Positions 26,184 through 64,000 of a DNA stretch of 64,000 nucleotides are shown in pieces. Each line of letters starts with the position of its first letter. Position 1 is the first letter of the stretch. This DNA is from Diplonema japonicum. Taxonomy: Eukaryota; Protista; Euglenozoa: Diplonemea. The notes under the pieces were generated by a model. The model did not search any database. It worked only from the letters and a program-made list of their open reading frames with translations, and was not told the origin of the DNA. The DNA is taken from positions 714,127 through 778,126 of the forward strand of contig OZ025663.1 in assembly GCA_964019335.1 (NCBI GenBank). The letters run 5' to 3'. Made by a program: the position numbers and the translations under genes.

Positions 26184-26714
26184 AGTGTACTCATTGTGGG
26201 GAACGAGGTCAGAGGTGGTTTATTTCATATTTGTCATTTTTTTTTTGAATCGTTTCCCATGTAAGACAGAATCTATTATTAGCCGTCGTTGTCGTTTTTT
26301 TTTTAAAAAGAACACGGACTTAGCAATACCCACACCTTCCCCGAGCTCGCACGAGAAGAGAGCTAGAAAGCCCAGCCGGTCTTTTAACTTTCATAATTTG
26401 GTTAAGTCCCCTCCCTCCCTTCCCCTGAGTCAAGAACAACGCAGCTTCAACCATGGTTTTAATTAAAAGGAAGATAATTGTAGTTTACTAGCAAAAGCAA
26501 AATACAAGAAAAAGGTGAACAAAGTGCGACTGTTTTTTTGTTTCCCTTTGTCATACATGTCTAGAGATAGTGGTTAAGCCATCTAGGGGAAGCAGGAGAA
26601 GTACAGGTGGGTATTTTCCTGGGGGCTTTGACCCGGGTTTTTTTCATGTATGATTTTATATTTTTTTTCACAATGCAAACTTCGTGATTTTCTTGTAAAG
26701 ATGTTGAGCGAAAG

Positions 26715-28349: not shown

Positions 28350-28408
28350 ATTACTAACTATGACATTGAAACTTCTCTTATTCATTTTTTAAACCAACCA
28401 CAGGAGCA

Positions 28409-30079: not shown

Positions 30080-30250
30080 GATCTGTAGTTCCTCTTAATT
30101 TTGTCCTGGAAGAAAAGTGTCCCGGAAAAGAAATGTCCGGAAGAACTGTGTACCCTTTTTCTCGGGATGCCATTAAGATATTTACAGTACTTGCATTCTT
30201 TTTATTTTCATGCGTTTCATCTCATCACATGCAGCTTTACCACCAAAGAA

Positions 30251-31165: not shown

Positions 31166-31556
31166 ACCCGATCTTGAAGCGTTACTGGACACCGGAGCCC
31201 TCCATCCTCTGGACAGTGGGAAGGGCATCGAAGTCTCCAGTTGTCTGCTTCGTTTTTTTTTGCATGTATTGTTTATCTCGCATCGTGTTGATTGTCGCAA
31301 AAGCGTGTGAAAACAAAATTGCCTCGTAATTATTTTTTTGTGGACTCGTCACTCTCTGCGAGTCGCGACATTTTCCCCCTGTTGAGTTAATTTATTTTGA
31401 AGAAACAAGAGAGCAGGAGGGCACAATCTCTTAGCTCATCATTTTTGTTTACCGATGCACACAAACAGACCTTGTGTGCAGTTTCTTTTTTAACCCTTTC
31501 AAGACGCTTTTTTGTTATCCCGAATTTATTACATTAATTCCATCACAGGCCAGTAA

Positions 31557-33356
31557 ATGTCTTCACTCAGCAGGACAGGTGCGTTGTTTGTGTTATGCAC
31601 GCAGGTGGCACTAACTTCGTGTGCGTACCTGGACTTGGCAGGGGAGGTGCCATTCCCGAAGGCAAGGGAGTTGAGGATTGCCGAGCGAAGGTCAGAATTC
31701 ATGCTGTCATGTGGGAATGAGCTGATGCTGCTGGAAATGGGGGACCTCAGGCGGCCTAAACCTGAAGTAGTAAAAAGGGTAGCGTACAGTGCAACAGCCT
31801 TTCGGAATATTGTGGTAAACGAAGACGAGGTTGTCGTGTCAAACGAGCAGACAGTGCTGCTGATGCGTGCAGAGAAGGACGACGTGACTGTAGTGGGCGG
31901 GAGCAGCATCACCGACTCAAAAGTAACAATAGCGGTGTCTGTTGGGGACAAGATCTTTGTCTTCGTCAACAGCAAGGGAGATACACGTGCCAGGGTGGAT
32001 ATCTTCCAGAAGTCAGAGGACGGTGACTTGAAGACATTGAAGGCATCCATCAAGCTCATCGGAGAGGTGATCGACGTTGTGACCAACGAGGCCATGGTTT
32101 ATGCCATTTCCAGCGTTGGTTACATAATGGTCTTCGACTCCACCAAGACAGATGGCTACACGCTGCGCTCCATCACCCCGACGCTTCAGAAGCCCACATG
32201 TCTCACCATGTTCAGGGACTTCATCTACGTTGGTGTAGGTAATGAACTCCGCGCCTACTTCGTGCACCCCACTGGAAACCTGGAGGAGGCCTCGCGGTTT
32301 ACCGTCAACGCTCAAGTGCGGGATGTCGCCTTTACAAGAGGGAACATCTATGCCGCCACATCGGAGGGGCTTACAATCATTGACGTGAAGGACCCCCGCC
32401 GTCCCTACGAGTCGGGATTCAGGCGTATTTCATCACCTGCGAAGAGTATCGAGGTGCACATCGACATTGCGTACATCGTAACTGAGAACGAGCATCTCGT
32501 GATGATTGACGTGGTGCCACCCGTCAACGAGGTACTGCTGGTGGCCACACCCACACCTACTGCGGCACCAAAGAAGGCCGCCGTATGGATCCCCACCAAC
32601 GAGGATGTTTACGAGACGACTGTCTCAGGTAGTGCGCCCTTCACGATGGTAGATGTGGACAATGGCATTGGTGCTTGGAGCGATCTGTTTGGTAGCCAGT
32701 TCTTCGACTTCCCCGAATGGCTCATGGGCAGCAAGGCCTTTGTTGCTCCGAGCTCTATTGCGAAGGACACCAAACTGCACATTGCGTGTGCAGACATAGT
32801 CTGCAACGTGTTTATCTTCTTTGAACACTGCCTGCCGTGCTCGGCCTCGAGTAACGGGGGATTGCCCAGCATCCTAGTGAGCGATGGATGGGTCCCTTCT
32901 TCGTGCGGACCGAAGTTCAGGCTGCGCAAGAACAGCGCACCGCATTCGACCATAATCTTCAGGAAGCAGATACGAAAGGGGACCACTACTGTGCTGCCCG
33001 GTCTTTCAAAGGACGCCCGGTTTGTCGGCTTTGCGGTGAAAGAGGGGAGAACCATGTGCGAAGCAATTAGCTCGGAGGCGGAGTGTAACACAGGGACATT
33101 CTTGTGCAAATGGGACGAGGTGGTTGGGGGCTGCATGCCGAAGGTGACGAGCTGCAAGATTAGTAAGAAAGCTGGTATTACTTTAGCGCCGACGCCACGT
33201 CCGTCAAAGGTGCCAGACGAGCCAGTTAAGCCTGTAGAGGTGCGCGTGAGGGAGGTCAAGGTGCTGGAGGTGGTGCCACCTCGGCAAGCACCACCACCAC
33301 GCCAACCTGCTCCACCACCTTCGGGTGCAACATGCACATGTGCAGCTTTCGAGTAG
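31557..33356 (+). CDS. Secreted LVIVD-repeat propeller + Cys-rich domain protein (paralog 3)
   Basis: Shares FTRGN.YAAT..GLT.IDVKDPRRPYESGFR.I.SPAKSIEV and EHCLPCS..SNGGLPSIL..DGWVPSSCGP with paralog 2; intronless. Confidence 0.75.
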   Translation: MSSLSRTGALFVLCTQVALTSCAYLDLAGEVPFPKARELRIAERRSEFMLSCGNELMLLEMGDLRRPKPEVVKRVAYSATAFRNIVVNEDEVVVSNEQTVLLMRAEKDDVTVVGGSSITDSKVTIAVSVGDKIFVFVNSKGDTRARVDIFQKSEDGDLKTLKASIKLIGEVIDVVTNEAMVYAISSVGYIMVFDSTKTDGYTLRSITPTLQKPTCLTMFRDFIYVGVGNELRAYFVHPTGNLEEASRFTVNAQVRDVAFTRGNIYAATSEGLTIIDVKDPRRPYESGFRRISSPAKSIEVHIDIAYIVTENEHLVMIDVVPPVNEVLLVATPTPTAAPKKAAVWIPTNEDVYETTVSGSAPFTMVDVDNGIGAWSDLFGSQFFDFPEWLMGSKAFVAPSSIAKDTKLHIACADIVCNVFIFFEHCLPCSASSNGGLPSILVSDGWVPSSCGPKFRLRKNSAPHSTIIFRKQIRKGTTTVLPGLSKDARFVGFAVKEGRTMCEAISSEAECNTGTFLCKWDEVVGGCMPKVTSCKISKKAGITLAPTPRPSKVPDEPVKPVEVRVREVKVLEVVPPRQAPPPRQPAPPPSGATCTCAAFE

Positions 33357-42852: not shown

Positions 42853-45405
42853 ATGTTGCGAAAGGGAATCAGGAGACAGGCCTTGAGTGCTGCGCGGAGG
42901 GCCACGCACAACTCGCCTACGCTCCTCAGGGCGCCTGTGCTGAGGGAGACTCCCGGTGAAGACGGTGGACCGACAGAGGTATTTGCTGCTGCTGGTCCGA
43001 TAATCTCGTTAGAGGAGAGGAGATCCTTGGATGATGTGCCTCGGATGCAGGTGTGTTTTTTTCTTGTTTGGATGATATATTTTTTTAGGAGCACGAGAAC
43101 GATCCTGCAGCTTTCGTGCTCTTGCACATGCCTGGGCACGAGATTGTGATGGGATCGTACCACCCTTGCGGCGCTTTATTTGAGTGCACTATCTCCCTAA
43201 ACAGGGCCAGGGAGTGCATTCAGAGGCTGAGGGAGGTTCTTGATGAGAATGGCATCCCAGCACGCACCCTTGGGGAGATCATGCGGATGGGACACTTCAC
43301 CGAGGACAGGGAACAGCTTAAGAAGATGGCCTCAAGTTCGCTGACATACGAAGTGCGCGAGAAGGACGAGCCTTATCTTATGGGGGAAGAGCTGCGTCTT
43401 GCGAGCGACCAGTACAAGAACGACGTGGTGGGCGGGCTGGATGTGCGTGACTTGGTATGTTGTTGTGCCTTTGAGAAGTCTTTATTAACAGGTTGATGTG
43501 ATTGTGACACAGCCGACGGTGTCCCTCGCAAAGAGTGGAAACAACACACCTTTGAAGTCTACTGGGTACAGGTTCGAGCCTCTGTCAAACTTGGTATGTT
43601 TTGTTCACGGAATATTTGTATCCCGCACAGATTTTTACCCGTGACCAGCAGATCGTGACCGCTAAGGGTGCTGTGCTGGCGAACTTGAACTCTGGTCAGA
43701 GGGCCCCAGAAGTGAAGGTGGTGCAGTTTTGCTTGGAGAAGCTTGGGATCAACGTACAGGGCAAGATTGAGGCGCCCGGTACCCTCGAGGGGGGCGACTT
43801 TTTCCCCGCGGGGAGGGATCTGTGCTTCATCGGGATGGGCATCAGGACGAACGATGCCGCTATCCAGCACATGCTGAAAAAGGATATGTTCGGCACTAGG
43901 CGTGTCGCCGTTGTGGCTGATCTGTTCGATCGCAACCAGGCCAGGATGCACTTAGACTGCGTTGCAGGCATTGCTAGTGAGAACTGCATTGTTGTGAGGG
44001 AGTCCATCATCGGGAAGTTGAACCCCAAGAGGAGACTTGTAACCGAATACACGCAGAACGAGCAGACAGGCGAGTACGAGGTGAGTGTTGAGCACATGGA
44101 ATTCGGTGAGTACTTAACTGCCAACGGCTGGCATATCATTCCCGCCTCGGAGCAGATGGCCGACGATCTTGGAATTAACTTCATCAACATGGGCAATGGA
44201 CAGCTCATCTGTACCGACGAGGCCATGGGTGAGACAATTGAGAACTTCCCTCATTTCAGAGGAAAGGTACATGTGATCGACTACAGAGAGATCTGCAAGA
44301 TGTACGGTGCCATCCATTGCACCACGCAAGTGTTCCGCCACGGAATGCCTGATAGCGAGAAGCCCTCGACCGGTGTTACCCCTGACTTCAGCAAGGCTCT
44401 GTCCACCTTCACCGAGAAGGTTCAGTTCATTCCTGATGAAAAGTCGCAGACCACCAACAGCGTGCTCTTGGTGGCCCCTACTCAGTTCGGTCAGAACAAC
44501 GAGACCCTTCAGGACAATGAATTCATGACGCGCGACAAGAAGCACCTGCGCTCGACAGACATCGACGTCATCGACGCCGCTTGCGAAGAGTTCCAAAGTC
44601 TGTACTCGTCCCTCCTGCGCGAGGGTGTCAACATCAAGCTGTACCACCACGAGCCTTACCATGGCACTCCTGATGCTTGCTTCCCTAACAACTGGTTCTC
44701 TACCCACAGGAATGCCAACGGTAGTTCCGAACTTGTACTATACCCCATGGCGCACCCCAGCAGAAGGAGGGAGCGCCGCCCCGACATCTTGAAGTACCTG
44801 AACGGCAGGTGCTCAAACTTGATTGACCTCTCTGACCACGAGGACATGAACATGTTTTTGGAGGGCACTGGCAGCATGGTGCTCGACAGGATCCACAGGA
44901 TCGCCTACGCGGTGGTTTCCTCGCGCACAGACGAGACTGTGTTGGGCAGGTTCTGCGAGCACCTGGGCTTCAAGCCGTTCCCCATCCACACCAAGGGGAA
45001 CATGTACCACACTAACGTGATGATGAGCATCGGGACCAAGTACGCTGCGGTGTGCTTCGACCACCTGAAGGATCAGGAAGAGGTGTCTAGATTGTACAAC
45101 TCGCTGAAGCAGACTGGCAGAACTATTGTGACCCTGTCTGAGGACCAGTGCACTAACATGTGCGGTAACATTCTGGAGTTGAGGTCTGAAAAGGGTGAGG
45201 CGTTCCTTGCCATGTCTGACCGTGCCTACAGCAACTTCAACCCCCAGCAGCTGTACAGTATGCTTCAGTGTGTCGACCACATCGTGCATCCGGACTACGC
45301 GACTATCGAGAACGTATGCTTTTGTTAGAATTTAAAAACATATCTTATTTCACACCACAGCTTGCCGGCGGTTCCGTGCGTTGTTCTATCGCAGAGCTTT
45401 TTTAG
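42853..45405 (+). CDS. Fusion of arginine deiminase (protist type) and CtlX-like amidinotransferase-family hydrolase, with mitochondrial presequence
   Basis: Introns 43051-43088, 43455-43491, 43594-43630, 45314-45360. Domain 1: NLIFTRDQ, LEGGD, MHLDC, YGAIHCTTQ. Domain 2: PDACFPNNWFSTH, LYPM..PSRRRER, FLEGTGSMVLDR, YHTNVMMSIG, GGSVRCSIAELF. Confidence 0.85.
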
Positions 45406-50826: not shown

Positions 50827-50886
50827 TATTTTATTTCTTTCCTACAACACGCTAACCAACAGTACCGAACAGGATTACAAAACAAG

Positions 50887-52721
50887 ATGAAAGGCTCCGC
50901 AACAGCTTTGTTTAATTACATAGACTCTAACAAGAGTGGCAAAATCAGTGCAACTGAAATGGCAAGGGCCATGCAGGAAGAGTCGATTAAGAACAGGCTG
51001 AGGTGGCCCGGCACTAGCGACCAGCTGGTGCACTTGCTGTCTGGCGGGGGAAGTCACGTTACAGAAAGCAGGCTCGAGTCATACTTTGAAGTCTTAGAAC
51101 TGTTTTCGTTCATTGATGACAACAACAGCGGCCGGATCAGTCCGTACGAGCTTAAGCGAGCTCTTCAGAAGGACGGAGTTGTGCTTAAGAAGCTGGGTGT
51201 TCCGGCACATCTGTCGAACACATTGTTCTGCCAAATCGATACAAACAACTCAGGGGCGATTTCATTCGTTGAGTTCTACAGGCATTTCACAGCTGCACCA
51301 CTTTCGAAGCCATTCAAGGCTCTAGGCAACTATAGCCAGATTACGGAAGCTCTTTTTAAGAGGATGGACAAAGATAACAGTGGAACCATCACAAAAGATG
51401 AATTCGTAGATGCGCTGCGCAATGACCGCGAGATTCAGTTGGAACTTGGTTGGCCGGCACAGATGGCTAACCATCTATTTACCTTTCTTGACAGTGACAG
51501 GAGTGGAGATGTATGCATACTTCGTTTGATTGTAAAACAAGCACAGGTATCTCGCAAGGAGTTTGCCCTGTTCTGCAAAGCACAGTGGCTTTTCAACACC
51601 ATTGATAAAAACCGCAGTGGCTACATCGACGCCTACGAGCTGGGTGTTGCTTTGGCAGTATGTAGCATAATACAATAGACCAACTAACCACAGAACCCGA
51701 TGCTTGAGAGGGAGTTGAACAGTCATGCTTCTCAGGCAAAGCAGATATTCACCAGGATGGACATCGACGGGTATGTGACAATGAATCTTTTGATTGCATT
51801 TAGGTCTGGAATGGTCAAATTCTCAGAATTCTACCGCTGGATGGCAAACCCGCGTGGTGGATACACTTCTCCTGCACCGCCTAAGATCCCTGAGAACAAG
51901 TGCGACCACTACAAAAACGTTAAGAGGATCGGTCAAGGCAGCTTCGGCGATGTGTGGCTTGTTGACCACTACTCTGGAGAGAGGCTAATCAAGAAGGTGC
52001 CTTTATTGCAGGAAAGTGAGTCGGGAGGTTCTTTCAGGGAGCGCATGGACGAGGTGAGGAGAGAAGCTGAGATGCTAAAGCAGTACAAGCATCCGAACAT
52101 CGTGCGCTACGTTGACTCGTATGAGGAGCCGGTGTCAAAGGACAGGGTTGGTATCATAATCATCACTGAGTTTTGCTCCGGAGGGGACCTCAGGGGATGG
52201 ATGAAGAATCGCAAGCCTGTGGAAAGTGAAGTTGTCCGATTGTTTTCGCAGGTATGTCGGTGAGCCATTGTTGAGACAACACACAGATTTGCGCGGCAAT
52301 TCAATACTTGCATCACGGAAGACTCCTGCACCGTGATCTGAAGCCAGACAACATATTTTTATCTGGAAAACGTGAAACCCCAACAATAAAGGTAGGTGAT
52401 TTTGGATTGGTGAAACAGCTCGGGAAGACGCAGAATGCAGCAGCCACAGTTTGCGGTACCATGCCTTACATGGCCCCAGAGATTTTAGAAGGGAAGACTT
52501 ATGGCAGTGAGAATGATGTCTGGGCCCTCGGGTGCATCCTGTACGAGATGGCAAAATGCGATAAACGTTTGGCATTCCCCAACATCGCAGACACTGTGAA
52601 TTGCAATCTCCCCAGCGGCATTCCCAGCTGGTGTGCACCCACTATCCGTGGTATTCTTGTTGCAAACCCCAAGAATCGCCCGTCTGTAGACAGGTTGGTT
52701 ACGGGTTTGCTCAAGGAGTGA
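50887..52721 (+). CDS. N-terminal multi-EF-hand, C-terminal NEK-like Ser/Thr kinase
   Basis: Seven DxDxSG-type EF loops; kinase IGQGSFG, HPNIVRY, HRDLKPDN, DFG, GTMPYMAPE, DVWALG; introns 51511-51546, 51658-51693, 51771-51803, 52252-52286. Confidence 0.9.
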
Positions 52722-53362
52722 GTCAGATCAGTGTTCTGTGTGTGTTGCCCCCCTCCCCCCTTCACTAGCTGGTGAGCGCGAAAACGCAAACCTTGAATGT
52801 CTAGTTTCTTTCTTTCCTTCATTTCTCGAACGTAATAAGGCGTCAAGACACTTCAGCTCAGAATCATAAATATAAGATGATCAATTGCTTATGTAACAAT
52901 GTGTTCAACAAGTCCTTGTTTCGCATAGGTCACTAAGATAAGGAGCACCATGTAAATTGGATTGTCTGTTTTACTGGGGTTAGAGATGGTTATCGACTTC
53001 GTTTCAATTCGAAGGTCGGGGTGTCGCGATCACCAAAAGTTCGGAGATGAACACCCATGAACGTTCTTCAACAAACGAACGAACTCGGACGAAACGGCCG
53101 TGCACACAAGCAGGACGGAAACAAGAACCTCTTCCTGGCAGAAGGACGGGTCTAGGAAGTTGTCTTAGCGCGTTTTCGGGGGTTGGGTGTGCAAGATGCG
53201 GGAGCACGGTGATAGGCAGCAGACGTCACATTCGTACCTTGCACGCTTGGAGCACTCGCCCACCTTGCACACCCTCGAATTCACTCCTTGTCGCATCGCA
53301 TGGAGCAAGTCACCTCTTCTCGGGGTCTGGGCTCCATTCTTGTCGCCTGGAGGTCACCGTGT

Positions 53363-53592
53363 CCGCAAACCCGCAAACCCGCACGAGAAATAAAGCAATC
53401 ACTTGGTTTTTTAGAATTGTGGGTTTGCGTGTCTGTGTGTGTGTCTGTGCGGGTGCGTGTATGGGTCTGTGTGCTTGCATTTATCTGCGTGGTGTGTCTG
53501 TGCTCGTGCGTGGTCTGTGTGTGTGTCTGTGTGCGTGCGTGTGTTTGTGTCTGTGCCTGTGTGCGTGCATGTGTCTGTGCTTGCGGGTTTGC
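53363..53592. repeat. (CCCGCAAA)n unit, degenerate GT/GTCT microsatellite and inverted TTGCGGGTTTGC
   Basis: GCAAACCCGCAA at 53365-53376 is the exact reverse complement of 53581-53592; TG-rich tract at 53418-53580. Confidence 0.75.
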
Positions 53593-53726
53593 TTTGTGGT
53601 GATGTGTTTTTCCTGTTTTTGATTTTCTTCTTCCCCCGCTCTATGCTTTTTCGCATGGACATTGGTCACTCTGCCCCTTTCCCCTTTGTTGATTCTCCCT
53701 CTTTCCCCCTCCTAAATTTTACCCCC
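53593..53726 (+). repeat. Left 134-bp direct repeat flanking the retrotransposon (probable target-site duplication)
   Basis: Matches 62623-62756 with two mismatches (53666/62696 and 53688/62718). Confidence 0.9.
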
Positions 53727-53761
53727 AACGATTCTAAAGCTACAGTTTCTGTACTTTATTG
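53725..53761 (+). other. Spliced-leader (mini-exon) sequence, diplonemid type, lacking the first 2-4 nt
   Basis: CCAACGATTCTAAAGCTACAGTTTCTGTACTTTATTG versus the diplonemid SL as I recall it, AACCAACGATTTAAAAGCTACAGTTTCTGTACTTTATTG (35/37). The 3' half CAGTTTCTGTACTTTATTG is the conserved kinetoplastid/diplonemid SL end. Confidence 0.9.
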
Positions 53762-56700
53762 GTCGTCTGTGTTTTTGTTGGTGCCTGCTGCGTCCGCTCG
53801 GTGTCCGTTCGTCGTCGTCTGGGGGGGTTGTTTCGGCCCGGCCCGCCTGCCGTTTAGCAAAGGATCCCCTCCCCCCTCAACACAAAAAAAAAAAAAAATA
53901 AAAATGGACCCTAGACGAAACGTCGTCGGAGACCGCCGCCCGCAGGAGGAACGCCTACGAGAGACGCCGACCAAGCCGACCACCCGACCAGACCGAAATC
54001 TGGCCGGGCAGTATGACCCCTCCCCTCCCCTTAGATCCCCTCTAGATGTCGTCAAAAATAATAAAAAACATAAAAACCAGGCAATCTGGTTGGGCACAGA
54101 GACCGCGGTTTTGACCGCCGCTGCTACAACCACGGCCGCCCCAGCCACCCTGAACGCCGCAGCCGACCCTGCCGCCCTAATCGCCGCAACTGAGACCGCC
54201 GCAGCCGCCCCTGCCGCAGCCACGACCGCCGCGACCACGACCCCTGCAGCCGACCCTGCTATTGTTGAAGAGGGAAGAAAAGAGGGAGAAAAAAAGGGGT
54301 GGGTACTGGTGTATGGTGAACACCCTCCCGGGTTGAGGACGGGCCCGGCCCCTGCCTTCCCGAAAGCCCTGCTTTCAGGAAAGTGGGAGGCCCTGTCTGG
54401 GAACTCAGGGAGGGAGACCCTCCAATACGGGTACCGGTGGGAGGGGACGAACGCCAAGGTGCGCCCCACCACGGGGATCCCAGGGGGGGCGGAGGGGTGG
54501 GTGAGGGAGGTGGCCGCCGCCGCAGGGCTCGAGGTGGTCCCCAACCAGGTACTTGTCAACAAGTACAAGTCTGGTTGTGGGATTGCCGCCCACAAGGACG
54601 ACGCGAGGCTGGGACCGATTGTCCTAGTCCTCTCGTACGGAGCCGAGACCACAATGGTCATGAGGAGGGGGGACAGGGTGGCGAAATACCTGGTGCCCCC
54701 CTTCTCATGGGCATTGTTGGAAGGTGAAGCGAGACACCAGTGGACGCACCACATCCCGTCCGGGATGTCCACTGGTGTCAGGGTGTCGATCACCCTGCGT
54801 GCGGTAGGCCCCAAGCTCACCCGCACACCCCAGGAAGACCCATCCCCTGGGTTAACAGACGAACCCCCTTTTTTAGATCCCCTTTTTTGTGGGCAAGGGG
54901 GGGTGGCACTCCCAAGAGAGGATAGTGCCCCACCCGCCCCCCTTTTTTTTTTAGAACCCTCTTCGGAGGAAAACAGACCCTCTTCGGAGGAAAATAGAGA
55001 GAAAGGGGAAGAGGTGGCACTCCCGAGAGAGGGTGGTGCTCCTCCCCCCCATTTGTCCCCCCCTTTTTCATTTTTAGAGCCCTCTCCAGAGGAACCCTCC
55101 ACGGAGGTAAAAAACAGACCCTCTTCGGAGGAAAAAAAGGCAGAGGGAGAGACAGCACGCCCGAGAGAAGGTAGTGCCCCTCCCTCTCTGCCCCCCATTT
55201 TTTCTGGACCCTCTACGGAGGTGTACACCCTGGTCCCCAAGGGCCGGGGGCTTTTTTTGAGGGTGGAAGGGAAAGAAAAAAAAAAAACAAACAAGGAGGA
55301 ACCTTTTTTCTTTTCAAACAACCAGGGGGACCCAGCACCCACCCCCACCGCCCGCCTAGGTGTGGTTGGGGCGGAGGCTGCGAGCGACGTGAGAGCACCA
55401 CTGCACACCCTTGTGAGAAGACAGAAAAGAGCCCCCTGGATTGCCATGGGTGGCAGGGAACCTAAGCCAGCGCCCAAGCGGAAGAAGAACAGGAGGAGGC
55501 ACAGGAGCGAAACGGCCCTTCAGAGGCGTCGGGAGAAGAGGACCAAGGCGAGGGAGGGGGCGAGGGAGGCTGCCAGACAGGAGAAGAAAAGGCACCGTCG
55601 TGCGAGGAAAGAAGGGAGGAGGAGGGCCCGCAGAGAGGAACACGAGGCCGCCCTGGAACAGAAGCCAGATGACCCTGCAATGGGGCTGAAGCGGACCGAG
55701 GTGGGAACGCCTGGAGCCCAACCCCTGGCACCCAGAATCCCGGCACCTGGGGCTGCAACCGGCACAAGGAGGCACCGCAGACGGACGGGACACAGCAAGG
55801 AAGGGGTGAGATGGGAGCACCTGGGGGTGTGGGCCTGGGTCGCCCTGGTCTCCCTCTTGCTGATCCCAGGGGTGAGGCAGGTGCTGGGGGCGGGCATCGG
55901 GATGGCCCCCTCCTTCCTGCATGCGGCAGTGTTGTGGAAGAGGCCGGGGAGCGACAGGAGGACCACCCGCAGGTCAAGGGTACAGGTGGGGCCCCGAGGG
56001 GATGAATGGTCCGCCGGGGAGCTCGCTTGGCTAGCAGTAGGGGGCACTCTGGTGGGAAGCACTTCAGTTTGGATAGGGGGGCTGATGTCGCTCTGGGCCA
56101 TGTCGGAAGTGATGGTGTGGAAAGCTGGTGCTGACCCGGCCCAGAGATTCGGACCGGTAAAGCTGAGGAAGACAAGACGCGGATCGAGAGGTCACTACCT
56201 GCCGGTGTACTTGGGCCCGCCTAGAAGCTCAAGACGCAGAAAAAAGAAGGAAGACGCCAAGCAAGCGGCGAAGGAACGAGCCGAGACGGAGGATAAGCTC
56301 TTTCAGGCCGAACACCTGGACCCCTTTGCGGACTTGACGCTGGCAGGGGACGCGTTGCAAGGAGGTGGTGACCCTCCCCCCATGGATTTGGATGATGAGC
56401 ACATGGAGGCGCAGAAGGAGGGGGAAAAAGAAGGATCAGACAAACATCAATGCCGGATGGAAGACTGCTCTTTCCGCACCAGTGTGGCAAGCTGTCTAGT
56501 TAAACACCTCAATGCGGTCCACCATCATTTTGTGAAACAAGAGCAGGCGAGGAGCATGAAGGTGAACCTCTGTGGAACGTGTGCTGCGGCGTGCTCGTCG
56601 AACCAGACGCACTGTGCACTACACAGGCAGCGGAATCTGTGGAACCCCGACAAACAACCCAGGGCCGGCAAGTCAGTGGACGAGATCATGAAGAGCTTCA

Positions 56701-59700
56701 AGCTGACGAGGAGATCGACGGAGAAGGACGGGAACTGCATGTTCCACGCCCTGGCCGGTTCGCTCGGGGAAGCCTACGGCGACCACACCCACATCAGGAG
56801 CGAGGTTGTAGAATGGATGAAACACCGGGAGGAGCACTATGCCCCGTTTTGCAGTGAGGGTTGGGACCGGTACTTGGAAGGGATGGGCACAGCAGCGACG
56901 TGGGGAGACCACTTGTGCCTGGCAGCCGCAGCACAAGCGTTTGGCCGCACGATACTCGTGGTTGCTGGGGGGAACAACCCAGTCCTGATGATAGGGGAGT
57001 ACAACTCCGACCACGAGAAGGTGGTGGTGCTGGCGTACAACGGCAACCACTACGAGTATGCAGTCGGAGAGGAGGAGTCGATGATGATGCTCCTTGATGA
57101 GTCCCAATCGGTAGCTCTACAAAAGGCAGGTAAGCAACCCTCCGAGGCCCCGGGTGAGGACATCGGGGAGTGGGACATAATAGACCGTGCGATCCCTGGA
57201 TACGGGAAGGCAGGGGTGTTGGACCAGATGGGGGCAAGGAACCAGCAATTCCTGTACTGTCCGGTGGCGAACTGCGCTAGGTCGAAGTGCAAAAGCACGA
57301 CCCCGTTCAACTCGACAAGGGTATGGAAGTGTCACCTGGATGGGCACCTGGAGAGTGATGAGATCCCGGAGAGCGTTCTGAGGAGACTGGACCTCGAGAG
57401 GTGCCTGGTGTGCAGGGGCTGTGTGTGGAAGGGTCAGGGGTGCCACGACGAGTGCAAAAAGGCGGTGCGAAGGGAAGGGGAATACACGACCCCCCCGCCG
57501 GCCCCGACGAGGACCGAGTTACCCAGCCTGGAAACCATAGCCGCCATGAACGTCACGACCATGGGGTCGATCCCGACGAGCCTTCAAAGACTGTGGGGGC
57601 TTACCCTTAAGCACACTCTGGGCCGAGCGGTGAAGGACAACACAGAGGAGGCTTGGCTGCTGGTGGCGATGCTCCCCAAAGCCTGCCTGTGGAAGAAGAG
57701 GGGAGGGAAGAAGCGGGACAAGGAGACGGAGCTGAGTGTCCAGGCCAGATTGGAGGAGTGGGAGAAGGGAAATTACATGGCCCTCTGGAATAAGCTGGAA
57801 TCAGGTGAGAAGGGGGAACCTAAGAACGACGAGGTCTCTAAGGTCGCCAGGGCCACGGAACTGTGCAGCAAAGGGAGGTTCTCGGCAGGAAACGCGGCGC
57901 TTGTAGCCCAGGGGCTGGCGGAAGACAATGAGGATTGCTGGAGAGCGCTGCAGAGCAAACATCCAGAGCCACTACACCCCCAATGGGACAACCCGGCGAA
58001 GACGAAGGAAGCGGTAGAAGTCTTGCCAGAAGAAGTGCTGGACGCAATCAGGGACTTCCCGAGGGGGACTGCTGCGGGACCGACTGGTCTGAGAGCCCAG
58101 CACATCAAGGACGCGGTGGACGGAGCTTTTGAGTCTCAAGGCTGTTTGATGTCGGTGACGAGGGCAGTCAACGCATTAGCTAGAGGCACGGCCCCTAGGG
58201 AGGTGGCTCCGCTGATGGCAGGGGCGAACCTTGTGGCCCTCAAGAAGAACGACAGGGACGTGCGGCCCATAGCCGTTGGGGATGTGCTGCGTCGGCTGGT
58301 GGGGAAATCCCTTGTGAAGAAGATCGCTCCGGAAGTGGCCTCTTCGTACCTGAAGAAAGGCGGCCAGGTGGGGGTATCGGTCCCTGCTGGAATGGAGGCG
58401 GCTATACACACCATCAGGCAGTATGTGGACAGGGAACGGGGCAACAAGCAGGAAAACAAGGTGATCCTCAAGATCGACTACGCCAACGCCTTCAACAGTG
58501 TTTGTCGGAGGCAGCTGTGCTCACAGGCCTATGAGCAAGCGTCGGGGCTGTATGCGTGGGCCGATTGGTGCTACAGGGTGCCCTCCCAATTATACTACAA
58601 CGGAAAGGTGATTAAGTCCCAGGAAGGGGTGCAACAGGGGGACCCGATGGGACCGCTGCTGTTCTCTCTGGCCATCCAACCCCTGGTGAACAAGATAAGT
58701 GAAGACTGCAACCTGGACATCCTCCAGTTCTACCTGGACGATGGCGTCCTTGTGGGGAATGTGGATGAAGTGAGAAAGGCGTACAACATCTTGTGTGAGC
58801 TGAGCGGAATGATAGGGCTGAAAGTGAAACCCCAGAAGTGCGAGCTCATATGGGTTAGTGGCGACCTCCCCCAGACAGTGGAGGACACAGGCTTCGATGG
58901 CCTGACAGAAGAGAATTTCCACAAAGAGAGGAACTTCATGCTCCTGGGGGCGCCGATAGGATCGCCGGAGTACACGCAAGCCTTTCTGAACAAACGCTTG
59001 GACGCGCTGGAAGAGAACTTCGACATGCTGACCAAGGTGGGGAGGCAGACAGGGTACACACTTCTCCGGTATTGCAGCTCATACAGCAAACTGGTGTTTT
59101 ACATGAGAGTGGTCCCAGACTCGCATGTGGGAGGGGTCATGCACAGGTTCGACGAGATGGTGCGGAAGACGATGTCGAAGGTGTGCGGCATGCAGTTCGA
59201 GAACGGGTCGGAAGAATGGCAGCAGGCGAAACTGTCCGTAAAAGTCGGTGGGCTTGGGATGAGGAGCTGCCAGGAGCACCTGCGCGCGGCCAACATGGCT
59301 TCGAGGGCGTCGACGATGAAGCTGTGCAAGGAGCTGGATCCCAAATACGAACATGGGCTGGAAGGGGGTGTATGGGGGAGCTGGCTCGAGTGGTTCAACA
59401 GGACGAAGGGCGGCATGCAGATTACACCCGACATGGTGGCCAAGGCCCCCCACATCTGCAGCCAGAGGTGGCTCTCTAGGGTGCTTGATGAGAAGGCGCT
59501 GGAGGACCTCTTGGCGAAAGCAGATGCACGCTCGAGAGCGAGGTTGATGTCGGAGTCAATGCACTATGCGGGAGCGTGGTTGACGGCGACGCCTGACTTC
59601 TACAACCAGCTGTCGGACAACGAGTTTGGGGCTCTGATCAAGTGGTGGTTGGGGGCTCCGGTCTACAAGCAGGGTGAGAGCTGCCACGACCCGAGGTGCA

Positions 59701-62622
59701 AGACTGAGGGGATGGACGTATGGGGTGACCATGCCCAGGGATGCGGCAACGCCAGGATTGCGAGGCACGACCGGGTGAAGGAGACCATCCACAGACACTG
59801 TCAGTGGGCCGGGGTGAGCGCAACGATGGAGAAGACGGGGCTGATCCCGGGGTCGTCCCAGCGCCCGGCGGACGTGTTCTTCCCAGGTGGGGTGGGGGGT
59901 TCCCGCCCAATGGCTATGGACGTGGTCATCGTGCACCCGAGGAACGAGTCTTGTGTCAACCAGGCGGCGAAGACTGCGGGATACGCAGCGGCGAAGGCGG
60001 AACACTACAAGCGCCAGAAGTATGAGGCGGAGCTCGCCAAGACACGCGTGGCCTTTGTACCTTTCGCGATGGAGACCTTTGGGGGGTTCGGGGAGGCAGC
60101 AGTCTACCTCACGAAGAAACTGTCCAGGAGCATAGCTGCGCGGGCTCACGGGGACAGAGTCTCGATACACAGGCGTGTGGTCCAAGAGGTGTCAACGGCC
60201 ATGATGAGATCGATAGCAGGGGCGCTGTTAGTCAAAGGGCCTGTACAGTTGGATCCAGGGCCCCCGGTACCGGACGGCGAAGAGGAAAAAAAGGACAACG
60301 AGGAAGCGAACAACGAACCCAACACTGAATCCAACACTGACCTCACAGAGGACTCCTTCGGCAATGAAAAAACCACCGAAGCTGAGGAGTCGTCCGAGAG
60401 GGAAGTGAAGGGACAGGGAGGCGGACCCCCAATCACGGTGGCCCACCAGCTGGATGCCCTTCTGGAGCAGACGAAGAAGGACCTGGACGCCCGAATGCAG
60501 CAGCAGCGAAAGGCGGAACCGGTGGAGGGTGGAACACAAGGGAAAGCGGGAGCAGGACTCGAAGCAGCCTCGCCGGGAGGAGAAGACACGGAGATGGTCG
60601 GAACAGGATCCAGCGAGAGGGCTGGGCAGGGAGGGGAGCTTGACCCGAAGGCCCAGGAAGATGGGAAGAGACAAGGGGCGACTGACGCTGCGGTGAACCA
60701 GACCTTGGACCAGTGTCCTAAGGGGGATACGGAGGCCCAGAGGGACTCGAACAAGGGGGACCAGAGTGCGACAACTGCTACGAGGAAGATGACCGTGAGC
60801 GAATTCTGTAGGGAACAAGCTGCGAAGAGACAGGGCGGTGGGAGGACTCTGAAGCCGCAGGCGGATGACGCCCCCGAAGGGACCAAAGAGGGCGGGAACG
60901 CACCGAGCGGAGGCAGCCAGTCGGGGCCTGACACACCTAGGGGTGGGATCCAGACGCCGGAGGGAGATCAGCTGATGGGAGTCGGGGCACCGGAAAGGGA
61001 ACAGCAGGTGGAAGTAGGGGGAGACTTCGTTCAGCTTGACCCGATTGATGTGGTGATGGGCATCCCAATTCCGAGAGCGATGGTGCCACTGAGGGCGAGG
61101 CCGGGGGACCGACTGCTCAAGTTCATCATCCAGTTCGAGGGCCGGGTGGAGATCATCCTTGAAGAAGGAACGGACCCTGGAAGGGAGAGGACTGAGGAGA
61201 TGCTTCTTGCGAAGGCCGAGTCGCTGGGTGTTCCACTGGAGGTGGCTATGGCTGGCCAGATTGGTATCGCTGGACTTGGATACATGATGGTAAAGCAGTA
61301 CTTCGCAAGCTTGGAAGGTGGGTCGGACGGAGAGCGCCGCAGCCGCATTGTGGGTTGTGAGGTGCAGAAGTCGGAAACATACCGCGAGTTCGAGTTCCCG
61401 AGGACGGTCCAGGATTTCCAGATCACGTACGCGTGTGGGTGTTCGGCGGTGCAACCTGTTCGTTTCAAGGGTGGCGTGCTCAAGGGGACTCTGGAAACGG
61501 CATGGAGGGTGGTCAAGTTGCAGACCCGGGGGTGCAGACACCACCCGACACCGGGGAAGGAAGGGGTAGTGGGCATTGCGGCGGGAGCCGGCGCTACCAA
61601 GGTGACACTACGTGAGTTCTTGGAGAGGTGCGACGCAAGGATAAGGGCCCCAGTGGGAAAGGTCAAGGACCTGATCAAAGTGAAGGCGTGGGTGAGGGAT
61701 GGAAGGAAGGTCACCCTCGACGTCTACGAGGGGAGGGGGCCCTGCGAGAAGGAGACGAGGCGCACTGTCCAGGACCATCTGCGGAAGATGGGTGTTGAAG
61801 AGGTCGACCTGCAGTCAGCGGTGGTGACGGTCCCGGGGTTGTTCGAGGACGTCTCCTTTGAGAGGTACCTTGGGCTGTTGGCCCGGAAGAAGGAGGAAGA
61901 CAGGGAGAGGCGGCCTGAGGTGGTTGCCACGGATCTCCCCACCCTGGAAGAGCTGAAGTGGAGCAAGAAGGACAAGAAGCGGGCCCGGGCCCGATCGGCC
62001 AGTACTGACTCGGATTGTGTGGAGGGTGGCTACATCTATCTGAAGGGTACGGGGGCGGATGGCACCGTGGTCGAAGCCAACATATGCAGGGGTGAGCTCA
62101 AGGGGATGACCGGGCCCCAGTTCAAGTTCTTGGCGGAGCACAGGTTGATGGAAGAGCTGGGGAGCGACGACCTGGTGCGGGACACGGTCAAGGTGCGCAA
62201 CAAGGAGAACTGGGCCCCGGTGAACAGTGCGGTGGCTTGGCTGCAGCTCGAGTCGGGGAGGGCACGGGTGGGGCCCATACCCCACAAGAAGAGGTCCAAA
62301 GGCTCGCTGGCCAGATAGGCCAGCGGGGGTGTGGGGGGCTGTTCTCCCCCCCCCCGCCATAGGAAGATGTGAAACTTTTTTTTTTTTTTCTGAGAAAAAA
62401 AAAAAAGGGAAAAATAAAAGAATAGGGAACAGGTGCTACAACGGCCAGGCTAGATAGAACCACTTAGATTTTTTTTTTTTTTCCTTTTTTTTTTTTTCTT
62501 TTTGTTTTTCCTTTTTTTTTTTTTTTTTTTTATTTTTCTGTTTTTCTTTTTCTTTTTCTTTTTGAAGTGGAACCATCTCGGTCGACGTTTTTTTTTTCTT
62601 TTTTTTTTTTTTTCTTTTTTCT
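53727..62622 (+). mobile_element. Full-length CRE/SLACS-like (REL-endonuclease) non-LTR retrotransposon, 8.9 kb
   Basis: Single long ORF with RT and REL domains, bounded by the 134-bp direct repeat, with SL at its 5' end. Confidence 0.9.
53904..62318 (+). CDS. Retrotransposon polyprotein (2804 aa): AlkB-like dioxygenase - hydrophobic segments - Zn fingers - OTU protease - RT - CCHC/REL endonuclease - long C-terminal extension
   Basis: AlkB: NQVLVNKY, HKD, WTHHI, RVSITLR (about 54300-54810). OTU: DGNCMFHAL, WGD, NHY (56727-57053). RT: RPIAVG, KIDYANAFN, QQGDP (58632), YLDD (58731). REL: C-x4-C...H...C, RHD, RPADV, ETFG. First ATG after the SL is 53904. Confidence 0.9.
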   Translation: MDPRRNVVGDRRPQEERLRETPTKPTTRPDRNLAGQYDPSPPLRSPLDVVKNNKKHKNQAIWLGTETAVLTAAATTTAAPATLNAAADPAALIAATETAAAAPAAATTAATTTPAADPAIVEEGRKEGEKKGWVLVYGEHPPGLRTGPAPAFPKALLSGKWEALSGNSGRETLQYGYRWEGTNAKVRPTTGIPGGAEGWVREVAAAAGLEVVPNQVLVNKYKSGCGIAAHKDDARLGPIVLVLSYGAETTMVMRRGDRVAKYLVPPFSWALLEGEARHQWTHHIPSGMSTGVRVSITLRAVGPKLTRTPQEDPSPGLTDEPPFLDPLFCGQGGVALPREDSAPPAPLFFLEPSSEENRPSSEENREKGEEVALPREGGAPPPHLSPPFSFLEPSPEEPSTEVKNRPSSEEKKAEGETARPREGSAPPSLPPIFSGPSTEVYTLVPKGRGLFLRVEGKEKKKTNKEEPFFFSNNQGDPAPTPTARLGVVGAEAASDVRAPLHTLVRRQKRAPWIAMGGREPKPAPKRKKNRRRHRSETALQRRREKRTKAREGAREAARQEKKRHRRARKEGRRRARREEHEAALEQKPDDPAMGLKRTEVGTPGAQPLAPRIPAPGAATGTRRHRRRTGHSKEGVRWEHLGVWAWVALVSLLLIPGVRQVLGAGIGMAPSFLHAAVLWKRPGSDRRTTRRSRVQVGPRGDEWSAGELAWLAVGGTLVGSTSVWIGGLMSLWAMSEVMVWKAGADPAQRFGPVKLRKTRRGSRGHYLPVYLGPPRSSRRRKKKEDAKQAAKERAETEDKLFQAEHLDPFADLTLAGDALQGGGDPPPMDLDDEHMEAQKEGEKEGSDKHQCRMEDCSFRTSVASCLVKHLNAVHHHFVKQEQARSMKVNLCGTCAAACSSNQTHCALHRQRNLWNPDKQPRAGKSVDEIMKSFKLTRRSTEKDGNCMFHALAGSLGEAYGDHTHIRSEVVEWMKHREEHYAPFCSEGWDRYLEGMGTAATWGDHLCLAAAAQAFGRTILVVAGGNNPVLMIGEYNSDHEKVVVLAYNGNHYEYAVGEEESMMMLLDESQSVALQKAGKQPSEAPGEDIGEWDIIDRAIPGYGKAGVLDQMGARNQQFLYCPVANCARSKCKSTTPFNSTRVWKCHLDGHLESDEIPESVLRRLDLERCLVCRGCVWKGQGCHDECKKAVRREGEYTTPPPAPTRTELPSLETIAAMNVTTMGSIPTSLQRLWGLTLKHTLGRAVKDNTEEAWLLVAMLPKACLWKKRGGKKRDKETELSVQARLEEWEKGNYMALWNKLESGEKGEPKNDEVSKVARATELCSKGRFSAGNAALVAQGLAEDNEDCWRALQSKHPEPLHPQWDNPAKTKEAVEVLPEEVLDAIRDFPRGTAAGPTGLRAQHIKDAVDGAFESQGCLMSVTRAVNALARGTAPREVAPLMAGANLVALKKNDRDVRPIAVGDVLRRLVGKSLVKKIAPEVASSYLKKGGQVGVSVPAGMEAAIHTIRQYVDRERGNKQENKVILKIDYANAFNSVCRRQLCSQAYEQASGLYAWADWCYRVPSQLYYNGKVIKSQEGVQQGDPMGPLLFSLAIQPLVNKISEDCNLDILQFYLDDGVLVGNVDEVRKAYNILCELSGMIGLKVKPQKCELIWVSGDLPQTVEDTGFDGLTEENFHKERNFMLLGAPIGSPEYTQAFLNKRLDALEENFDMLTKVGRQTGYTLLRYCSSYSKLVFYMRVVPDSHVGGVMHRFDEMVRKTMSKVCGMQFENGSEEWQQAKLSVKVGGLGMRSCQEHLRAANMASRASTMKLCKELDPKYEHGLEGGVWGSWLEWFNRTKGGMQITPDMVAKAPHICSQRWLSRVLDEKALEDLLAKADARSRARLMSESMHYAGAWLTATPDFYNQLSDNEFGALIKWWLGAPVYKQGESCHDPRCKTEGMDVWGDHAQGCGNARIARHDRVKETIHRHCQWAGVSATMEKTGLIPGSSQRPADVFFPGGVGGSRPMAMDVVIVHPRNESCVNQAAKTAGYAAAKAEHYKRQKYEAELAKTRVAFVPFAMETFGGFGEAAVYLTKKLSRSIAARAHGDRVSIHRRVVQEVSTAMMRSIAGALLVKGPVQLDPGPPVPDGEEEKKDNEEANNEPNTESNTDLTEDSFGNEKTTEAEESSEREVKGQGGGPPITVAHQLDALLEQTKKDLDARMQQQRKAEPVEGGTQGKAGAGLEAASPGGEDTEMVGTGSSERAGQGGELDPKAQEDGKRQGATDAAVNQTLDQCPKGDTEAQRDSNKGDQSATTATRKMTVSEFCREQAAKRQGGGRTLKPQADDAPEGTKEGGNAPSGGSQSGPDTPRGGIQTPEGDQLMGVGAPEREQQVEVGGDFVQLDPIDVVMGIPIPRAMVPLRARPGDRLLKFIIQFEGRVEIILEEGTDPGRERTEEMLLAKAESLGVPLEVAMAGQIGIAGLGYMMVKQYFASLEGGSDGERRSRIVGCEVQKSETYREFEFPRTVQDFQITYACGCSAVQPVRFKGGVLKGTLETAWRVVKLQTRGCRHHPTPGKEGVVGIAAGAGATKVTLREFLERCDARIRAPVGKVKDLIKVKAWVRDGRKVTLDVYEGRGPCEKETRRTVQDHLRKMGVEEVDLQSAVVTVPGLFEDVSFERYLGLLARKKEEDRERRPEVVATDLPTLEELKWSKKDKKRARARSASTDSDCVEGGYIYLKGTGADGTVVEANICRGELKGMTGPQFKFLAEHRLMEELGSDDLVRDTVKVRNKENWAPVNSAVAWLQLESGRARVGPIPHKKRSKGSLAR

Positions 62623-62756
62623 TTTGTGGTGATGTGTTTTTCCTGTTTTTGATTTTCTTCTTCCCCCGCTCTATGCTTTTTCGCATGGACATTGGCCACT
62701 CTGCCCCTTTCCCCTTTTTTGATTCTCCCTCTTTCCCCCTCCTAAATTTTACCCCC
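62623..62756 (+). repeat. Right 134-bp direct repeat
   Basis: Copy of 53593-53726; identity ends at ACCCCC|TGCC versus ACCCCC|AACG. Confidence 0.9.
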
Positions 62757-63976
62757 TGCCCCACTCATTCCTCCCTAGTATGTTTTTGAATTTGCCTCTT
62801 CTTCTTTTAAGCCTTTTTTGAGATTTTTATTTTTGAATTTTTATCATTTGGAGTTGCTTCTTCTTCTTCCCCTCTCCCTCCCATAAAGAAAAAGAGAAAC
62901 CCATGCCTTCCTCCCAGGTTGGAACTTGATTGTCTGTTTTGGAATATTTTTATTTTCTCTTAAGATTTATCGTGCCTTGTGTGTCTTTTGAAGAAAAAAA
63001 AAAAAAAAAAACATTCTCAAGTCCCCCTTTTTAAAAAAACCTACCTCTGCTACCAATAGGAGTTTTCCTTCTACAGATTGTTTGCTGATGGTTTTGAGTT
63101 GATTCTTTTTTATTTTTTATCTTATGGTTTAACTAGAAGTTTTCCTTCTACAGCTTGTTCGCTGACGGGTGGGTTTATCAGGCGGGCTTCCATAGCTGGT
63201 GACCTATGGAAGCCTTCCCAAATTTTTTCTTTTTTTCAGGCCGGGCTGGGGAAGGACGGCAAGACCACCAACGGAGGAGAAACCGCTGCAGAAAGGGGAA
63301 AGGTGCAGGAAGACGAAGAGGACGAGAGGGCGTCTCACAAAGACTCCCTTCAATTCATATATCTTTTATTTTCTTTTTATTTTTCTTTTCTTTATTTTCT
63401 TTCTCCCAACCCTACCCCCCCTCGAAAAAAAAAAGAAAAGAAAAGAAAAGATTCATTCCTCCCTAGTTTATTATATTTTGCATCAGGTTCGCCGAGAAAA
63501 TAAAAGGAAAAACAAGGAAAGAGAACGGCAACCAAATTTTAAATTTTTATTTTATCATCAAAGGAGGTTTGAAAAAAAGAAAAATTAAAGAGAAGAAAGA
63601 GGCCTTTTTCTCCTCTATCGATAAGTGATTCACGAACTCGAATCTTTATCACCACTTTTTTGTGCATGCCAGATTTTTTTTTTCTCCCGCCTTGTTAGAG
63701 AAGTTTTAATTTACTAGTAAAAAAATAAAAAAAGTGAAAAGAGGAGTAGAAGACGATCCGGTGGGGGGCATGGGAACCATAAACCGTGTCTTCCATCGCG
63801 ATCGGCAAGGCGGGGGCTTTTCCGTCCCATGGGTGAAAAGAGGCGGATAAAACCACTATTCCGGACCCCCCCCAACACTGAGCATGCACTTTTTCCCCCA
63901 TACATACCTCTCTTGTTTATCAAAATATCACCAATTTTACGGCGGACGCCAAGAAAAAAAAAAGCCAAGGAGACAC

Positions 63977-64000
63977 CCGCAAACCCGCAAACCCGCAAAC
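63977..64000 (+). repeat. (CCCGCAAA)3 tandem repeat running off the window end
   Basis: CCCGCAAACCCGCAAACCCGCAAAC; same unit as 53363-53383. Confidence 0.75.

Follow-up and report, generated by a model that had tools for sequence, protein, structure and literature searches.

A single open reading frame (ORF) of 2804 aa in a 64,000-nucleotide stretch of Diplonema japonicum DNA (contig OZ025663.1; hereafter, the window) combines an AlkB-family dioxygenase, an OTU cysteine protease, a reverse transcriptase (RT) and a restriction-like endonuclease. The element that carries it is real and multi-copy, and its architecture is common to two diplonemids, D. japonicum and Diplonema papillatum. We consider it fairly probable that it represents an intact, multi-copy CRE-type retrotransposon of the class without long terminal repeats (non-LTR), in which the single ORF is likely to encode a polyprotein and the AlkB domain is likely to clear bases that block reverse transcription.

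Translation of the ORF (53904–62318, + strand, P0001) meets no stop. The AlkB-family Fe(II)/2-oxoglutarate dioxygenase, assigned to the ALKBH8 type from Pfam, sequence comparison and a structural model, occupies aa 157–301 (54372–54806), with the 2OG-FeII_Oxy_2 profile at aa 166–299 (E 3.6e-13). Its catalytic residues are H230-K-D232 (54591–54599), H283 in WTHH, R293 and R299 in RVSITLR, and N219-x-Y221, so that the motifs HxD..H, NxY and RxxxxxR are all present. The AlphaFold2 model of this part (mean predicted local distance difference test score, pLDDT, 85.6; alignment of 124 rows) has the double-stranded beta-helix fold and resembles AlkB-family structures in Foldseek. Further downstream, an Arg/Lys-rich region is followed by a hydrophobic, possibly membrane-associated stretch (aa 637–669, 55812–55910; Kyte-Doolittle peak 1.88), recognised by hydropathy only. 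Next come the tetrapeptide LQGG (aa 818–821, 56355–56366), a predicted cleavage site that resembles the C-terminus of ubiquitin, and a first Zn-finger cluster, C2H2 plus C2HC by motif scan (aa 850–904, 56451–56615). The OTU protease (56676–57059) shows both the D-x2-C...H catalytic motif (D942, C945, H1049) and the OTU profile (aa 942–1047, E 5.5e-12), and a second Zn-finger cluster, again from the motif scan, lies at aa 1119–1184 (57258–57455). The RT core (58242–58853) contains QQGDP at aa 1577 and YLDD at 1610 within RVT_1 (aa 1447–1650, E 2.8e-16); all three Pfam matches are above the gathering score. It is followed by a CCHC knuckle and the endonuclease (59682–60233; CCHC 1927–1947, RHD 1954, RPAD 1987, K2036), which fit the motif RHD..E..RPAD..D..K printed in PMC12857005 (papers are cited here for the accessible part of their text). 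The pattern C-x4-C-x10-H-x3-C-x6-RHD, plus RPAD, has spacings slightly beyond the ranges printed there. The C-terminal region (61044–62315, 424 aa) matches neither a Pfam profile nor any of the relatives compared, and its model (pLDDT 41) finds no Foldseek match at E≤0.001. This poor model contains about three beta-beta-alpha modules, the last of which (approximately aa 2710–2780) models at a pLDDT of about 85.

An earlier note made from the letters of the window alone had described an uninterrupted ORF of this length, a complete AlkB catalytic set with both arginines and the distal histidine, an OTU domain with catalytic D, C and H, two Zn-finger clusters, and an RT with a restriction-like endonuclease. 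All of these are present, and the profile and structure searches that it had proposed for AlkB and OTU agree with its assignments. The note mentioned neither LQGG, the hydrophobic stretch, the spliced-leader exon, the 134-bp direct repeat nor the flanking octamers described below, and it had not considered polyprotein cleavage as a role of the OTU.

Relatives in Diplonema papillatum and the LxGG motif

The nearest named relatives of the element are D. papillatum proteins of about 40% identity that carry the name ‘Retrotransposable element SLACS 132 kDa protein’. In P0159 (KAJ9442719.1, 2635 aa) and P0160, AlkB, OTU and RT lie in one ORF and in the same order, and P0021 and P0158 have AlkB and OTU matches. 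Compared with P0159 (family A), AlkB is 38.5% identical over 135 aa and the RT-endonuclease region about 40%, and the linker between the modules gives no BLAST match to this family. P0158 is identical to P0170, which contains OTU, RT and USP domains, over 629 aa of overlap, suggesting that a second D. papillatum family (family B) has AlkB, OTU, RT and a USP deubiquitinase. The AlkB domains of families A and B are 99% identical on RT regions that are only 54% alike, so the AlkB module was kept or swapped between the families. The catalytic residues are all retained in the D. papillatum element AlkB, and hydrophobic stretches are found by hydropathy at the same place in the D. papillatum families and in two of five ENA proteins tested. 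Thus, the possibility raised by the earlier note, that sibling copies lack AlkB, did not materialise. A scan of 1309 long candidates (1542–4907 aa) returned no AlkB; this was a false negative, P0159 being a non-representative member of its cluster. Several sister elements (P0158, P0170, P0177, P0366 and P0367 of D. papillatum, and the ENA proteins P0343 and P0351) have two deubiquitinases, an N-terminal OTU and a C-terminal USP; P0343 and P0351 additionally carry RNase H1 N-terminal (Cauli_VI) domains, and the P0198–P0200 families have a second OTU at the C-terminus.

In a FastTree phylogeny of 120 RT-endonuclease regions, built without reference sequences of CRE/SLACS/CZAR and MoTeR/Cnl1, the OTU-bearing elements form one clade (17 of the 120 rows, seven diplonemid and ten ENA) with a Shimodaira–Hasegawa-like support of 100. 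These best RT relatives comprise diplonemid, sponge and dinoflagellate sequences, a single plant-labelled one and others without a name, with none named trypanosomatid, and orthogroup OG0000024 is given with 745 D. papillatum ‘SLACS’ proteins and three Trypanosoma brucei proteins (PMC10161547). AlkB profile matches occur in four of 159 RT-family proteins, all diplonemid; none was found in 57 further cluster members, and neither AlkB nor OTU in 80 metagenome loci. Absence of AlkB outside diplonemids is weak evidence, since most loci are short and only three of 146 had at least 900 aa before the RT. The distribution on the tree suggests that OTU is an older trait of this RT clade than AlkB. For the two element AlkBs a single origin would be the simplest reading. 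They share RET, GIPxG and LGP, which occur in none, one and one, respectively, of 147 other proteins, although these motifs were chosen after the fact. Three observations limit the support for it: FastTree separates the two domains, a quick IQ-TREE run groups them but gives the grouping no support and flags long branches, and in an unbiased count of rare residues two of the 147 stand-alone proteins agree with the element AlkB as often as the D. papillatum domain does.

Ubiquitin itself ends in LxGG, and in the element ORF LQGG is the sole LxGG ahead of the RT. Family A has LAGG and family B LRGG at this point. Across seven families, [LM]xGG is present in the N-terminal part of all 13 relatives with an N-terminal OTU versus three of 18 without one, and in the alignment its position is the same throughout, following a conserved Pro, irrespective of whether a Zn finger comes next. 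An eighth family (P0343/P0351), found after the motif had been defined, has LAGG, so that the motif lies just before the OTU, or the Zn finger and OTU, in all eight OTU families with upstream sequence. P0327 has no LxGG in the 150 residues upstream of its OTU, this copy being cut just before the OTU, and P0367 (family C) begins too far downstream to show whether it has the motif. The pattern L.GG[GA][DE]P, chosen after sight, arises in 0.3–0.6% of 5000 shuffles per protein. The count is tempered by the kinship of the 13 carriers, which are hence not independent. Coronavirus PLpro offers a precedent, as it cleaves its own polyprotein at LXGG (PMC7464072).

Given the position of the motif, the OTU probably cuts the polyprotein after LQGG-821, in an act of self-processing that would free a part consisting of Zn fingers, OTU, RT and endonuclease; a host deubiquitinase could also cut at LxGG. 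A complex prediction of the OTU with a 32-residue peptide ending in LQGG (score 0.25, mark 0.34) speaks neither way. Cleavage would leave, on the N-terminal side, a protein with the AlkB domain, possibly RNA-binding and membrane-associated in view of the Arg/Lys-rich region and the hydrophobic stretch upstream of LQGG. We give even chances to an additional deubiquitinase activity of the OTU on host proteins. In sequence the OTU is nearest to OTUD5 (E 3e-6) and OTUD3, with nairovirus OTUs at E of about 0.02. An RT paired with a restriction-like endonuclease performs target-primed reverse transcription. The freed part would thus copy the element RNA into DNA at a nicked repeat, while the N-terminal AlkB part would oxidise RT-blocking modified bases on the single-stranded RNA or cDNA of the element.

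The AlkB domain and its candidate substrates

An AlkB-domain scan of 1.84 billion representatives gave 1443 matches at E≤0.001. Among the best 150, 139 are stand-alone proteins of at most 300 aa and three are D. papillatum proteins. The best PDB sequence match is human ALKBH8 (E 1.9e-9), followed by Schizosaccharomyces pombe Ofd2. Escherichia coli AlkB reaches only E 0.07–0.3, and the element domain scores far below the NCBIfam cut-offs for E. coli-type AlkB. In the structure ranking by Foldseek, ALKBH6 and NMAD-1 are ahead of ALKBH8, and among viral models Megavirus and Pithovirus proteins come first and RNA-virus domains after them. From these comparisons the domain can be assigned to the ALKBH8 type, and its closest kin are stand-alone enzymes of microbes and giant viruses. 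With the stand-alone ALKBH8s of bacteria, protists and mimivirus (PMC4051686) it shares the RxxQ(Y/W)G lid, NxY, HxD, EGEAR..W.H and RxSxTxR; it differs from them in lacking the first strand-helix, in having RET and LGP in place of RRV and FG, and in its location inside a retroelement ORF. Two near relatives of the domain, P0089 and P0093, are fused to a cap N7-methyltransferase and an FtsJ 2'-O-methyltransferase, respectively, and these fusions may hint at a link between this AlkB subfamily and cap chemistry.

The domain is very likely to be catalytically active. Its substrate is harder to name: RT-blocking adducts (etheno, 3-methylcytosine (m3C), 1-methyladenine (m1A) or leader-cap methyls) on the nucleic acid of the element itself are a serious candidate, with chances that we place just short of even. 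In assays on DNA, stand-alone ALKBH8s removed etheno adducts as well as some m3C, preferring etheno over methyl lesions (PMC4051686). According to the same source, they do not rescue RNA phage treated with methyl methanesulfonate and mostly fail on m1A, and its authors favour an unknown RNA-modifying role; together, these points weaken a simple RNA-repair reading.

The same study lends some weight to another view, in which AlkB would modify host RNA by hydroxylation, for example at a wobble base of tRNA of the 5-methoxycarbonylmethyluridine (mcm5U) type or similar, and would tune translation of the long ORF or of host defence genes. Two protist stand-alone ALKBH8s, including the Tetrahymena protein that consists of the AlkB domain only, hydroxylate tRNA mcm5U (PMC4051686). 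ALKBH8 is the best PDB sequence match, as noted above, and in NCBI the names of two D. papillatum copies are taken from the tRNA enzyme ALKBH8. However, Pfam finds neither the RNA recognition motif nor the Zn knuckle of ALKBH8 beside the domain, and with an identity to its relatives of 27–48% and the structural lead of ALKBH6 and NMAD-1, membership in the subfamily does not fix the substrate. We regard action on host RNA as unlikely.

Still less probable is that AlkB erases silencing or decay marks from the element, namely N6-methyladenine in RNA (m6A) or DNA (6mA), an activity put forward for orchid Gypsy elements, with the OTU serving as a counter-defence deubiquitinase that has no processing role. 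The AlkB protein of such an element demethylates m6A in vitro (PMC9289625), NMAD-1 ranks high in the structure comparison, and the addition of a USP or a second OTU in the relatives points to selection for deubiquitination. By contrast, neither ALKBH5 nor FTO is among the 37 PDB sequence matches at E≤1, and the orchid domain is a homologue of ALKBH5, which the element domain is not; the removal of m6A marks, put forward in the earlier note, is thus left without sequence support. A counter-defence role alone would also leave the conserved LxGG without explanation.

A variant of the self-processing model carries a similarly small chance. Here, the RT clade would process its polyprotein in the manner of RNA viruses, cleavage at LxGG would free a membrane-associated N-terminal protein, and an AlkB added in the diplonemid branch would strip base methyls from the leader cap; the RT could then run almost to the 5' end of the RNA, and a copy with the leader would be inserted anew. 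Self-processing taken by itself is fairly probable. The cap part is hinted at by leader positions 3–39 in the genomic copy and by the methyltransferase fusions of P0089 and P0093; base methylation of the diplonemid cap is assumed from trypanosomes.

Copies, ends and candidate target

Twelve of the 24 sequencing runs listed contained at least half of the sampled words, and five runs were compared with the window. Contig depth, which is a rough guide to copy number, is 108.7 (X2) and 18.2 (X3) for neighbour genes that are single-copy, contain introns and lie on one 10.5-kb contig. Contigs of the element reach 2004–2701 (X2) and 722–1020 (X3). The AlkB bins stand at 3197 and 3168 (X2) and at 1167 and 1051 (X3), in line with the RT bins, so that in these two DNA-like runs the AlkB stretch has the depth of the RT, about 20–55 times that of the flanking genes. 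Because of this agreement, AlkB is part of the repeated unit; a single-copy gene joined to the element by mistake would show a depth near that of the flanks, and the measured depth speaks against an assembly error. X6, which was called RNA-like solely from a contig that skips two introns and from leader joints, covers the element with listed contigs of depth 9–218, from which neither strand nor expression level can be read. Among the ORF differences listed (40 of 139 rows), 36 in number, 20 are synonymous and 16 are not; none is a stop and none falls in AlkB. Taken together, these differences are a weak sign of constraint. The copies also vary locally. X2 and X3 contigs hold other sequence just before 54097 (54076–54097), and at 54129, 54147 and 54179 all four runs differ from the window, suggesting that the N-terminal coding stretch of the window copy is a minority or strain variant. 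For 56253–56981, X6 contains a version that differs at several positions and is missing from X2 and X3 or scarce there; it would come from another strain or a preferentially transcribed subfamily.

Both flanks of the element consist of a (CCCGCAAA)n repeat. The 5' flank holds 2.6 copies of the octamer CCGCAAAC (53363–53383), a candidate target repeat identified with Tandem Repeats Finder (TRF) and shuffles, and is followed by a GT-rich filler (53418–53592) that is bounded by reverse-complement octamer pieces (GTGGGTTTGCG, GCGGGTTTGC) in the sequence, TRF and a motif scan. The 3' flank (63975–64000) has at least 3.2 octamer copies by TRF and depth and runs past the window end. Within the window the octamer 16-mer occurs in these two flanks only, with none expected from 100 shuffles, and the depth of the octamer bin at the 3' flank is 21034 (X3), 37839 (X11) and 412 (X2). 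Between the filler and the ORF lie 134 bp that duplicate part of the 3' untranslated region (UTR) of the element itself (53593–53726, 98.5% identical to 62623–62756) and a spliced-leader exon (53725–53761; positions 3–39 if the exon is 39 nt), which passes into the element 5' UTR without a leader intron. The leader core is as printed in PMC7859406, and the length of 39 nt is that given in PMC10161547. In the window the core is single-copy, the exon ends 142 nt before the ATG, and many X6 contigs depart from the window sequence at 53761. If the exon is 39 nt long, its first two bases are replaced at this copy relative to the start of the diplonemid leader, as would be expected from reverse transcription of a capped, leader-bearing RNA; such an origin of the exon is mildly favoured. 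The X6 joints from 53761 to approximately 53880 and to 55272 were considered as splicing of the element and rejected, being read as other leader-bearing mRNAs that match A-rich tracts.

The 3' UTR (62319–63973), which contains T tracts, is at element-level depth in X2, X3 and X11 where it is not skipped as a repeat (for example, an X2 contig at 62693–62863 has depth 3111). The 134-bp stretch within it is internal, 1.2 kb before its end, and there are no long terminal repeats; being internal 3' UTR at element depth, the repeat was rejected as an LTR, a target duplication or a leader promoter. The window copy ends in GAGA-CA-octamer. Further octamer joints are found from the octamer to 62819 (X2, X3 and X6, at flank-level depth in X2 and X3) and, in X3 at a depth of only 4.8, where an A run at 63039 passes into the octamer, and FoTeR junctions show the same pattern with telomere repeats (PMC12857005). 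Whether the (CCCGCAAA)n repeat is the target of the element is, in our estimate, evenly balanced. Two facts weaken the case: beyond 63973 most copies continue with AGGAGTTTAGGG (X2, X3 and X6) and not the octamer, and on its 5' side the element borders single-copy genes in place of a chromosome tip. In this diplonemid the octamer may be a telomere repeat of non-standard type or a satellite; a text search of the literature for it returned primer-type matches alone among the matches listed. Folding of the 5' flank is no better than that of shuffles (z -0.69). Rfam has no match at the gathering score in the window, and the 24 weak matches (E≤5) in 52700–64000 are all below gathering and low-complexity-like, with no ribozyme among them.

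These data bear on a plainer account, an ordinary SLACS/CRE element in a spliced-leader gene with AlkB as a recent passenger or an assembly join. A leader exon lies directly upstream, the nearest named proteins are called SLACS, and, also a point against the polyprotein reading, none of the contigs listed runs from AlkB to RT in one piece. However, AlkB has RT depth in both DNA-like runs, D. papillatum has the same domain order at 40% identity with the catalytic residues kept, and the G+C content at third codon positions of AlkB (0.79) is like that of the rest of the ORF (0.74–0.79). The passenger or join variant is largely refuted already, and the chimeric join that the earlier note had allowed for is contradicted by the depth. 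As for a leader-gene target, this copy has one exon and its 3' side has neither a second leader piece nor a leader intron, and what precedes the exon is 3' UTR sequence of the element itself. Thus, of the CRE/SLACS-type element with AlkB and OTU proposed earlier, the CRE-type ORF stands, while insertion into a leader gene as in SLACS finds no support at this copy. The plainer account as a whole is very improbable. A derivation of the AlkB and OTU modules from an RNA-virus replicase is most unlikely: such pairs do occur in RNA-virus polyproteins, and these appear in the structure and sequence lists, but Megavirus, Pithovirus and stand-alone proteins rank above them for AlkB, nairovirus OTUs match far less well than OTUD5, and OTU predates AlkB in the RT clade. 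The replicase-like module set seen by the earlier note is in this light a likeness that appears convergent, as the nearest relatives of both domains are not RNA-viral.

Neighbouring genes and known systems

The window holds eukaryotic genes, and the long ORFs tested are all on the + strand. They include a gene for a protein with adenylate-kinase-like, mRNA guanylyltransferase and cap N7-methyltransferase parts (14299–17064), three LVIVD/beta-propeller genes (26688–33356), in which 29150–29344 and 32331–32525 share 195 bp at 76%, and a tandem-domain gene of the arginine deiminase/eukaryotic DDAH-type amidinotransferase kind (43556–45328). EF-hand and kinase ORFs at 50827–52721 lie on one spliced X6 contig that skips 51511–51802 and 52249–52283, suggesting that they form one gene, for a calcium-binding kinase, immediately 5' of the element.

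The trypanosomatid elements CRE1, CRE2, SLACS and CZAR (PMC12278014) likewise have a long ORF with N-terminal Zn fingers, RT, CCHC and endonuclease, a euglenozoan host and a 5' leader exon. In contrast to them, the D. japonicum element has AlkB, OTU, LxGG and the hydrophobic stretch, and the 3' side of this copy lacks poly(A) and the leader remainder; the words ‘AlkB’ and ‘OTU’ occur 0 times in the main text of PMC12278014. MoTeR, FoTeR and Cnl1 share the RT and endonuclease motif, and they too are flanked at either end by short repeats rich in C, small in number 5' of the element and at least three 3' of it (PMC12857005). Here, the 5' side points toward single-copy genes and the repeat is an octamer that is only possibly telomeric; the accessible text of PMC12857005 reports no AlkB or OTU (‘OTU’ 0 times). 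A retrotransposon with a fixed AlkB-family dioxygenase is known in Phalaenopsis (PMC9289625). That Ty3/Gypsy element is of the LTR class and encodes an ALKBH5 homologue with shown m6A activity in a separate ORF2, whereas the present element is non-LTR and its AlkB, ALKBH8-type by sequence, is in frame with the RT. Closest are the D. papillatum proteins KAJ9442719.1, KAJ9464152.1, KAJ9446222.1, KAJ9435373.1 and KAJ9438409.1, a sister RT lineage with the same domain order, LxGG and hydrophobic stretch, deposited as ‘SLACS 132 kDa’ or ‘tRNA (carboxymethyluridine(34)-5-O)-methyltransferase’. They are about 40% identical to the element, and some have a C-terminal USP where it has the unassigned region.

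Proteases of deubiquitinase fold inside a mobile-element protein are likewise known from coronavirus PLpro (PMC7464072), which is USP-like and viral, and from viral OTU polyprotein proteases. OTU domains also occur in the DNA transposons Ginger1 and Helitron, for which the accessible text of PMC2836005 and PMC6431247 mentions no self-cleavage. Unlike the present element, neither PLpro nor Ginger and Helitron combine the protease with RT and endonuclease. No non-LTR element with AlkB or an LxGG site was found in the full-text literature, a search to which Repbase, Dfam and most subscription journals were external. The earlier note, which knew of no AlkB domain in a non-LTR element, is borne out to that extent, and the LTR elements of PMC9289625 qualify it as a retrotransposon precedent. 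The D. papillatum genome paper (PMC10161547) mentions SLACS-like gene models and, apart from them, a dozen AlkB genes; the link between AlkB or OTU and the element is absent from its main text and seven supplement files, among which Additional file 1, on repeats, is perhaps not included. A choanoflagellate CRE element in Repbase reportedly contains OTU, which would make the OTU part known. What is likely new, then, is a CRE-type element with AlkB in frame with the RT and a likely self-processing OTU.

If this is true, the element would be the first described non-LTR retrotransposon with AlkB in frame with the RT, as far as the full-text literature shows, and AlkB would have been captured separately from the event in orchid Gypsy elements, out of a different subfamily. 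A practical caution is that some diplonemid ‘ALKBH8’ gene models are parts of retroelements. The conserved LxGG would provide a testable answer to the question of what ubiquitin-type proteases do in transposons, and it tells where to seek cleavage. Since D. papillatum is the model species of the group, cleavage, localisation and substrate may be tested in a natural host.

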